Shown here: piece after piece, positions 30,761-32,269 of the stretch
How the letters are laid out: each line of letters starts with the position of its first letter
Position numbering within the stretch: the stretch's first letter is position 1
NCBI GenBank assembly: GCA_945898725.1
Contig: CAMDIK010000007.1
Span: 3,859-67,858 of the forward strand
Source of the DNA: Rickettsia typhi
GTDB taxonomy: Bacteria > Pseudomonadota > Alphaproteobacteria > Rickettsiales > Deianiraeaceae
Length of the DNA stretch: 64,000 bases
Direction of reading: 5' to 3'
Notes under the pieces: model-generated
What the model saw: only the letters and a program-made list of their open reading frames with translations
Databases searched by the model: none
What the model was told of the DNA's origin: nothing
Program-made: the position numbers and the translations under genes

Positions 30761-32269
30761 AATTTTTAGAGTTTGATCCTAGCTCAGAGTGAACGCTGGC
30801 GGTATGCTTAACACATGCAAGTCGAACGAAAGTTTGTTGTATAGCAATATATAATAAGCTTTAGTGGCGAACGGGTGAGTAATATACAGGAATCTACCTA
30901 GTAGTGTGGAACAACTATGAGAAATTATAGCTAATACCACATACGCTCGAGAGGGGAAAGGAGAAATTCGCTATTAGATGAGCCTGTATCCGATTAGCTA
31001 GTTGGCGGGGTAAATGCCCACCAAGGCGAAGATCGGTAGCCGGTCTGAGAGGACGATCGGCCACATTGGGACTGAGACACGGCCCAGACTCCTACGGGAG
31101 GCAGCAGTGGGGAATATTGGACAATGGGCGAAAGCCTGATCCAGCAATACCGCGTGAGTGATGAAGGTCGAAAGATTGTAAATCTCTTTTGTCAGGGAAG
31201 ATTATGACGGTACCTGAAGAATAAGGACTGACTAACTACGTGCCAGCAGTCGCGGTAATACGTAGAGTCCAAGCGTTACTCGGAATCACTGGGCGTAAAG
31301 AATGCGTAGGTGGCTTTGTAAGTCAGTAGTGAAATACCGGGGCTCAACCTCGGTGCTGCTACTGATACTGCTTTGCTAGAGTGCGGTAGAGGGTGGTGGA
31401 ATTCCTAGTGTAGGGGTAAAATCCATAGATATTAGGAGGAATGCCAGAGGCGAAAGCGACCACCTGGGCCGATACTGACGCTGATGCATGACAGTGTGGG
31501 GAGCAAACAGGATTAGATACCCTGGTAGTCCACACCGTAAACTATGAGTGCTACCTGTCGGGGCTTTGGCTTCGGTGGGCACAGCTAACGCGTTAAGCAC
31601 TCCGCCTGAGTAGTACGATCGCAAGATTAAAACTCAAAGGAATTGACGGGGACCCACACAAGCGGTGGAGCATGTGGTTTAATTCGATGCTAACCGAGAA
31701 ACCTTACCAAAACTTGACATGGCACCTTAAGTAGTCTCAGCAGTGAGCTATGTGGGCAACCTAGGTGTCACAGGTGATGCACGGCTGTCGTCAGCTCGTG
31801 TCGTGAGATGTTGGGTTAAGTCCCGCAACGAGCGCAACCCCCTTCTATATTTACCACCAGGTTAAGCTGAGTACTATATGGATACTGCCCGTGATAAGCG
31901 GGAGGAAGGAGGGGATGACGTCAAGTCATCATGTCCCTTATGTTTTGGGCTACACACGTGCTACAATGGTGCTAACAACGGGTCGCAACATCGCGAGGTG
32001 AAGCTAATCCCTTAAAAAGCATCTCAGTTCAGATTGCAGTCTGCAACTCGACTGCATGAAGTTGGAATCGCTAGTAATCGCAGATCAGCATGCTGCGGTG
32101 AATATGTTCCTGGGTCTTGTACACACTGCCCGTCAAGGCATGGAAATTGAATTTACTAGAAAACACTGCGTTAACCGCAAGGAGACAGGTGTTTACGGTA
32201 GGTTCGGTAACTGGGCTTAAGTCGTAACAAGGTAGCCCTAGGGGAATCTGGGGCTGGATTACAACCAAT
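30761..32269 (+). rRNA. rrs: 16S ribosomal RNA (alphaproteobacterial type, divergent)
   Basis: It starts ...aaatttttagagtttgatcctagctcag and contains actcctacgggaggcagcag, ggattagataccctggtagtcc, gggttaagtcccgcaacgagcgcaaccc and aagtcgtaacaaggtagcc. It ends ...ggggaatctggggctggattacaacc. No 23S gene follows. Confidence 0.97.

Follow-up and report, generated by a model that had tools for sequence, protein, structure and literature searches.

A 16S rRNA without the anti-Shine-Dalgarno core in a family of Rickettsiales, probably the Deianiraeaceae

[quoted passage not shown] It is highly probable that this is the single-copy, working 16S of a reduced Rickettsiales bacterium, probably a member of the Deianiraeaceae, and that the ancestor of this family had already lost the anti-SD. 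The gene matches the Rfam model RF00177 over positions 1-1533 and is not truncated (1480.5 bits with Infernal, gathering score 50). In the Infernal alignment its 3' tail, GGAUUACAACCAAU (32256-32269, forward strand), is set against GGAUcACCUCCUUu, the bacterial consensus for the tail being GGAUCACCUCCUUU, and the anti-SD core CCUCC has become CAACC. This alignment was preferred because MAFFT inserts gaps and is unreliable over the last 8 bases. A first-pass annotation of the window had reported that the core was missing, and the full-length alignment confirms it. As in the genomes defined by Lim, Furuta, and Kobayashi (2012), CCUCC is missing from any 16S gene found, here in an assembly that is 81% complete.

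The portion of the tail that has been conserved is the one recognised by the assembly GTPase Era. Era recognises G1530 and both adenines of the element GAUCA (PMC10582724); in rrs this element reads GAUUA, with G1530, A1531 and A1534 retained, and Era itself is present in the genome (profile match, 218 bits). Across the tails of the family GGAUUA is conserved and all sequence beyond it is divergent. The gene is flanked by the two strands of a predicted processing helix of pre-16S rRNA, the leader strand at 30668-30751 and the trailer strand at 32274-32380 (both forward), the latter beginning 5 nt past the predicted 16S end; the duplex has an energy of -62 kcal/mol, compared with -22.9 +/- 4.2 for 200 shuffles, the best of which reached -38.2. 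Since this helix would enclose rrs, the primary transcript should extend beyond the tail and the mature 3' end would arise by trimming, predicted to fall somewhere in 32256-32273. A TTGACA hexamer is found at 30588-30593, about 170 nt upstream of rrs. A search for another copy of rrs returned only this one in the whole 81%-complete assembly (1,066,998 bp in 22 contigs). It is unlinked to genes for 23S, 5S or transfer RNA (tRNA); indeed, the 64-kb window contains no tRNA gene, which places rrs outside any 16S-tRNA-23S operon, and a 16S gene split from 23S-5S is the arrangement of all Rickettsiales (Castelli et al., bioRxiv 10.1101/479196).

The same state of the tail is found throughout the sampled members of the family. 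The closest named 16S sequence is that of 'Rickettsiales bacterium NGIII-112018-94' (90.4% identity), followed by that of an 'Alphaproteobacteria bacterium' metagenome-assembled genome (MAG); for the MAG labelled Rickettsia typhi the 16S identity is 81%. In a 16S tree, ten full-length family members and G000 are monophyletic (support 100/100) and fall into two subclades, both of them without CCUCC, with identities of 77-91% within the family. The genome of G002, which belongs to the family, is closed, with 1,205,153 bp and a G+C content of 32% (first 400 kb). The published description of the Deianiraeaceae (bioRxiv 10.1101/479196) gives 16S sequences that group with that of Ca. Deianiraea vastatrix and are 77-100% identical within the family, a division into two subclades, a G+C content of about 33% in genomes of about 1.2 Mb, and a 16S gene apart from 23S-5S. 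The family is probably the Deianiraeaceae because genome size, G+C content, the two subclades, the range of identities and the freshwater labels of the MAGs all fit this description.

CCUCC is absent from all ten full-length 16S sequences of the family, whereas GGAUUACCUCCUUU is the reading in all seven sequences compared from the order's other families. The comparison was extended to 401 genomes of the order (assigned to Rickettsiales by closest named record) by searching for the marker GTCGTAACAAGGTA and then for CCTCC 22-32 nt further on. The marker was present in 310 genomes and was followed by CCTCC in 282. Within the family it was found in G000 and in 18 of the 27 other genomes, and none of these 19 has CCTCC; outside the family CCTCC follows in 282 of the 291 genomes with the marker. 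Eight more family tails that were read directly all contain GGAUUA and then differ (e.g., CAUUAUAUAA, CAUAAUAUAC, UAUCAAAG). These sequences suggest that loss of the anti-SD is a trait of the whole family and that it would have taken place in the family's common ancestor. The few exceptions outside the family are single genera. In genomes G194 and G205 the tail reads GAUUACUUUACAGUA, which matches exactly the one given for Ca. Fokinia solitaria in PMC10783764, GATTACTTTACAGTA in its supplement, and the tail of G147 is GAUUACCUAAAAA; in the family f26, the anti-SD is kept in 30 of the 35 genomes with the marker. In three further genomes from other families of the order (L197 in G049, L198 in G075 and L199 in G175), CCUCU stands in place of CCUCC, and such tails may represent steps on the way to loss of the anti-SD elsewhere in the Rickettsiales.

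Loss of the anti-SD from the ribosome is matched at the starts of genes. Shine-Dalgarno (SD) words (GGAG, GAGG or AGGA at positions -20 to -4) were counted upstream of gene starts and compared with internal-ATG controls in five genomes treated identically: G000; two others of the family, G002 and G004, the latter from the other subclade; and two relatives that keep the anti-SD, G215 (35% G+C) and G030 (50% G+C). The words precede 4.6% of starts in G000 (control 8.2-8.5%), 3.0% in G002 (8.4%) and 2.9% in G004 (10.4%), compared with 20.7% in G215 (8.5%) and 33.2% in G030 (6.4%). SD motifs upstream of genes in the three family genomes are absent, even depleted. The G fraction at -14 to -5 in G000 is 0.14 against a background of 0.16, and neither an SD excess nor a G-rich signal at -20 to -5, the second feature examined by Lim et al. 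(2012), is found, while both positive controls gave the signal. AT-richness was considered as a cause, but G215, at 35% G+C, has SD words at 20.7% of its starts and a G peak at -9, and the composition of the genome is therefore no explanation for the absence of SD motifs. In the window itself an SD word at -20 to -4 is seen in 4 of 49 called genes, near the genome-wide rate at internal ATGs, and one of the four is the fabZ-type GAGGAATAAACATG at 20602. The first-pass annotation had proposed, from the starts it inspected, that most genes lack an SD with exceptions such as fabZ, and that initiation in this organism is largely SD-independent; all three proposals hold up, the last of them genome-wide, where enrichment of GGAGG-type motifs upstream of starts was looked for and not found.

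New and independent functional support for loss of the anti-SD comes from prfB. Synthesis of release factor 2 (RF2) classically depends on a +1 frameshift at CUU UGA C, which is promoted when an SD-like element in the message pairs with the anti-SD (PMC12421855). Each of the 12 other families of the order that were sampled has this arrangement, with (A/C/G)GGAGG, GGGGG or CGAGG followed after 3 nt by CTTTGA(C/T) and with the N-terminus encoded in another frame. By contrast, prfB of G000 (G000:C22:4602-5642, reverse strand; RF2 model positions 3-351) is one open frame with no stop. Its GGAGG is gone and what survives, C-TTT-GAC, is decoded in frame as Phe-Asp, so that this gene falls outside the definition of the canonical autoregulatory frameshift. 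Nine genera of the family, including that of G000, have such an in-frame prfB, and as these genera belong to both subclades of the 16S tree, the in-frame state arose at least twice. Two family genera (g5 and g8), with 16S equally devoid of CCUCC, are still frameshift-dependent, at weakened sites. Frameshift-dependent genes read AAGGGC-TTA-CTT-TGA-C (L240 in G012), GTT-TGA-C with GTT as slip codon instead of CTT (L239 in G004), GAGGG with CTT-TGA-C 5 nt on (L234 in G014), and CTT-TAA-C with UAA instead of UGA (L229 in G007). The prfB site is known to work weakly without SD:anti-SD pairing (PMC10798248), and this fits the retention of the frameshift in two genera. Loss of the prfB motif has been tied to high use of UGA, and Rickettsia and Wolbachia keep the motif (PMC12421855). 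High UGA use was rejected as the cause here, as TGA accounts for only 16% of the stop codons of G000 and 7% of those of G004; with TGA so little used, loss of the anti-SD is the more economical cause of the loss of the frameshift.

A different start context is seen in the family. In G000, G002 and G004 there is a U tract at -15 to -11, where U rises to as much as 56-58% and G falls to 7-13%, and U occupies position -1 in 54-63% of genes, compared with 42% and 32% in the two controls. The anti-SD-keeping relatives show instead a maximum of G at -9 (33-38%). Three genera that span both subclades thus have the U tract and U-1 in common, and neither appears in the controls. Both are stronger in operon-internal genes, so that they are features of translation rather than of promoters. 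The start codon is the region of weakest folding (-2.7 kcal/mol, against about -4.4 in gene bodies).

How ribosomes find such starts could be explained in several ways. It is improbable that initiation is mainly leaderless, with promoters placed right at the start codon, even though some lineages that lack the anti-SD are known to initiate in this way (PMC3457768). Genome-wide in G000 an A-run followed by CTTGCAA or CTTGAC stands at a near-fixed -56 to -49 before starts; TTGC is counted 73-77 times per 4-nt bin in this interval and about 30 times elsewhere. TTGC(AA) and TTGA words peak there, and TATAAT-like words near -30 (about -32 to -25). This spacing of -35-like and TATAAT-like words predicts leaders of about 20-25 nt, and hence messenger RNAs that are not leaderless, and many G000 genes would seem to have a promoter of their own together with a leader of this length. 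In the window, promoter-like words of this kind stand before most genes. The feature expected of organisms with leaderless messages, a -10 element about 7-12 nt before the start in most genes, was sought and not found: A at -11, the key base of the leaderless-type -10 box, is not enriched (27-32%). The signals at U-12 and U-1, moreover, reach their greatest strength in genes inside operons.

It is more improbable still that the anti-SD was changed and not lost, the tail UUACAACCAAU, or a longer tail running into 32270-32273, pairing with an 'SD' that co-evolved with it. GTAA and TGTAA, complementary to UUACA in the tail, are indeed about 2-fold enriched at -20 to -5 in G000 and G002, and an A-rich tail could in principle find a partner in the U-rich tract that occupies the SD position. 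However, the real tail pairs no more favourably than is the case with shuffled leaders or permuted tails. The difference between real and shuffled leaders is -0.01 kcal/mol in G000, where 7 of 40 permuted tails do as well, and +0.02 kcal/mol in G002, where 12 of 40 do, compared with -0.90 kcal/mol and 0 of 40 in the control G030. The excess of GTAA is in part the stop codon of the upstream gene, and what remains begins at the predicted 5' end of the transcript without an SD-like positional peak; TTGTAA is found in fewer than 3% of genes. Furthermore, tails vary between genera (CAACCAAU, CAAUUAAA, UUAAUAAC, UAUAAUUU, CAUUAUAU, UAUCAAAG), yet the U-tract signature is the same in three of them. 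An alternative SD was rejected on position-resolved counts of GTAA, TGTAA, TTGTAA, GGTT and TGGTT with stop codons removed, together with the permuted-tail energies, and no replacement motif pairing with the new tail was found in the leaders of G000 and G002 (-22 to -2).

Finally, the assembly is of metagenome type, in 22 contigs, and rRNA genes are often mis-binned, but a mis-assembled, mis-binned or pseudogenised 16S can practically be dismissed, as rrs lies mid-contig in 77.6 kb between the strands of the -62 kcal/mol processing helix, all universal decoding bases are intact and its pair changes compensated, the nearest relatives, including the closed 1.205-Mb genome of G002, share GGAUUACAA, A506:U525 and U1400 at about 90% identity, and the SD-less starts across the rest of the genome agree with its tail. 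The contig position and the shared state of the relatives likewise uphold the earlier view that this is a functional gene and not a sequencing error.

Under the favoured explanation, loss of the anti-SD in the family's ancestor, the tail keeps only the part needed for ribosome assembly, helix 45 and GAUUA, while the sequence beyond it drifts freely between genera. SD motifs upstream of genes have gone with no tail-complementary motif taking over, and the SD-stimulated +1 frameshift of prfB, the single classic use of the anti-SD within a gene, has been abandoned in G000 and most of the family. Short leaders (about 20-25 nt), AU-rich and weakly folded, may then be where the 30S subunits are recruited; promoters set at a fixed distance from the start codon would generate these leaders, and protein S1 probably helps in the recruitment; rpsA is full length (483 bits, model positions 5-516). 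The only conserved start context would be the U tract at -15 to -11 and U at -1. A weak match to bS21 (22.4 bits, cut-off 28.95) at G000:C3:45374-45517 (L210) lies inside an open frame of 110 residues and is either a very divergent bS21 or not bS21.

Several points weigh against this account. Gene starts were taken from a crude caller of long open reading frames that uses the first ATG, although the same caller finds SD motifs in both controls. With the assembly 81% complete a second rrs is possible, one copy being usual in the order. Both the mature 3' end of the 16S and the sites at which transcription begins are predicted, and the part given to S1 and the U tract in recruitment is inferred. 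The two genera that still need the prfB frameshift imply that its loss is not obligatory once the anti-SD has gone. It can tentatively be suggested, as a less than even possibility, that the SD:anti-SD contact was replaced and did not merely decay: the fixed U tract, which occupies the position of the G-rich SD of relatives, and U-1 might be read by S1 and/or the initiator tRNA (U-1:A37) and not by the rRNA tail. The family might also serve as a natural time series, in which the anti-SD was lost once and the prfB frameshift was dropped at least twice, persisting in two genera. Such a series would reveal, outside the laboratory, the extent to which autoregulation of RF2 relies on the anti-SD.

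Loss of the anti-SD is in itself a published and recurrent phenomenon. Lim et al. (2012) found the anti-SD and SD motifs lost together in 15 of 1,182 genomes (PMC3457768), these 'non-anti-SD genomes' including Carsonella, Sulcia, Blattabacterium, primary symbionts of the Hodgkinia/Zinderia/Tremblaya type, hemotropic Mycoplasma and some Flavobacteria. Amin et al. added to this list, and the loss was called recurrent by Nikolaeva et al. (2020; PMC7782861). In PMC10783764, 112 organisms without an anti-SD have been catalogued, among them Fokinia. PMC3457768, PMC7782861 and PMC10783764, the last with those of its supplements that were searched, do not name Deianiraea, and a literature search returned no paper with both 'Deianiraea' and 'Shine-Dalgarno'. 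The present family resembles the genomes of Lim et al. in having a 16S without CCUCC and no SD enrichment, in belonging to a reduced, AT-rich, host-associated lineage and in a tail that diverges within the clade after the loss; it differs in being a whole Rickettsiales family with genomes of about 0.7-1.3 Mb and not the tiny genomes of insect symbionts. Two members of the same order, Ca. Fokinia solitaria (Midichloriaceae) and Ca. Phycorickettsia trachydisci, appear in PMC10783764 as lacking CCUCC, and their loss of it after GAUUA is independent. They are single genera in families that otherwise keep the anti-SD, however, whereas here every sampled genus of the family is without CCUCC.

Initiation of the Bacteroidia type (PMC7797042, PMC10798248) is similar in its SD-less genes, its reliance on leader context and a prfB frameshift that is weakly SD-independent. 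Bacteroidia, however, retain and sequester CCUCC and have an A-rich (Kozak-like) context, whereas in the present family CCUCC is absent, which sets rrs apart from a sequestered anti-SD, and the context is a U tract at -15 to -11 with U-1. A subgroup of Parcubacteria without an anti-SD (Tsurumaki et al., 2022; PMC9297842) offers the parallel of a clade-wide loss of CCUCC together with SD-less genes. A whole Rickettsiales family, with genomes of about 1 Mb and one described member that is extracellular, thus joins the short list of anti-SD-less bacteria, and a family-wide loss in this order means that the trait is not confined to tiny insect symbionts, Mollicutes, Flavobacteria and bacteria of the candidate phyla radiation (CPR). 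In practical terms, gene callers with an SD model will misplace starts in these genomes, and expression of family genes in E. coli requires added ribosome-binding sites. The coincidence in one family of anti-SD loss and prfB frameshift loss, at low UGA use, also provides a clean comparative case for a question raised in PMC12421855 and PMC10798248.

Substitutions elsewhere in rrs are of a more ordinary kind. The Infernal alignments of the 530 and decoding regions read CACACUGCCCGUC against the consensus CACACCGCCCGUC, GCAGUCGCGG against GCAGCCGCGG, and GACUAAC against GGCUAAC. The three changes reported by the first-pass annotation, G506A (31231), C525U (31250) and C1400U in the decoding-centre strand (32127; all on the forward strand, E. 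coli numbering), are correctly numbered against E. coli rrs, and 506 and 525 are paired as it had claimed. Positions 505-507 pair with 524-526 in the pseudoknot of helix 18 (PMC7356742), which makes A506:U525 a compensated change that keeps the pseudoknot pair. Helix 18 with the 530 loop (31229-31266, forward strand) contains a second compensated pair, U504 (31229) with A541 (31266) replacing C:G, and G530 and A532 are intact. The 506:525 pair is A:U in seven family sequences (this one included), G:C in three and C:G in one, and 504:541 is only C:G or U:A. These are ordinary compensated pair changes of helix 18, and the three states of 506:525 are good covariation at a site that is, for that reason, not invariant. 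The A506:U525 pattern GACTAACTNNGTGCCAGCAGTCGCGGTAATAC occurs in more than 120 GTDB species representatives from many phyla, including Phycisphaerae, Mollicutes, Karelsulcia and CPR bacteria. U1400, a lineage trait and not a private one, occurs in 9 of the 10 family members compared, in 4 of the order's 7 other families compared and in 9 of a diverse set of 63 16S, and is a tolerated variant common in the order. All of G530, A532, G926, U1052, C1054, A1492, A1493 and G1494, from the list of universal decoding-site bases of Noller and colleagues (PMC9014874), are identical to E. coli. To describe the changed positions as normally invariant, as had been done, was therefore an overstatement.

Nor is the suggestion sustained that the rRNA is evolving fast, since rrs departs from the at least 95% consensus of 71 non-family 16S at five positions (504, 541, 767, 1056 and 1419), compared with eight for E. 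coli and 0-21 for other sequences (one outlier, 50); the reference set had been chosen for A506:U525, and columns 506 and 525 were ignored. The Infernal score of rrs is about 100 bits below that of 16S from other families. A 'hyper-divergent' rRNA was considered and rejected, as five departures lie in the ordinary range, and the divergence of this 16S is modest. Among the departures only U1056C looks unusual: this C in helix 34 (31782, forward strand) is two bases from the intact, universal C1054, and position 1056 is U in all 71 non-family 16S and C only here and in one family member.

The first-pass annotation had also expected primers 515F and 1392R to mismatch rrs and the lineage to be under-detected in amplicon surveys. 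Each of the two does have one mismatch, as does 27F, in all cases single and internal, whereas 341F, 785R, 806R, 907R and 926R match perfectly. Under-detection is only partly plausible, the V3-V4 pair 341F/785R being perfect, and the point is a minor one; the family has been recovered from amplicon databases (Castelli et al., bioRxiv 10.1101/479196).

Two other 16S sequences deserve mention. In another family member (L016, genome G003), which has the third Watson-Crick state C506:G525, there are 21 departures from conserved positions, U532 (GGTTATAC) stands where A532 is reported to be universal, and GGAACA replaces GGAUUA before the tail. For the E. coli numbering the reference was an E. coli rrs whose V3 region is shorter by 23 nt, the offsets being verified at six landmarks. 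An annotated copy in strain SMBL (L208; NZ_CP061914.1, 1294952-1296470), which is among the two E. coli sequences that best match the query 16S, falls 23 nt short of the usual 1542 nt; its V3 region (helix 17) is unlike that of normal E. coli, and the assembly may be chimeric or contaminated.

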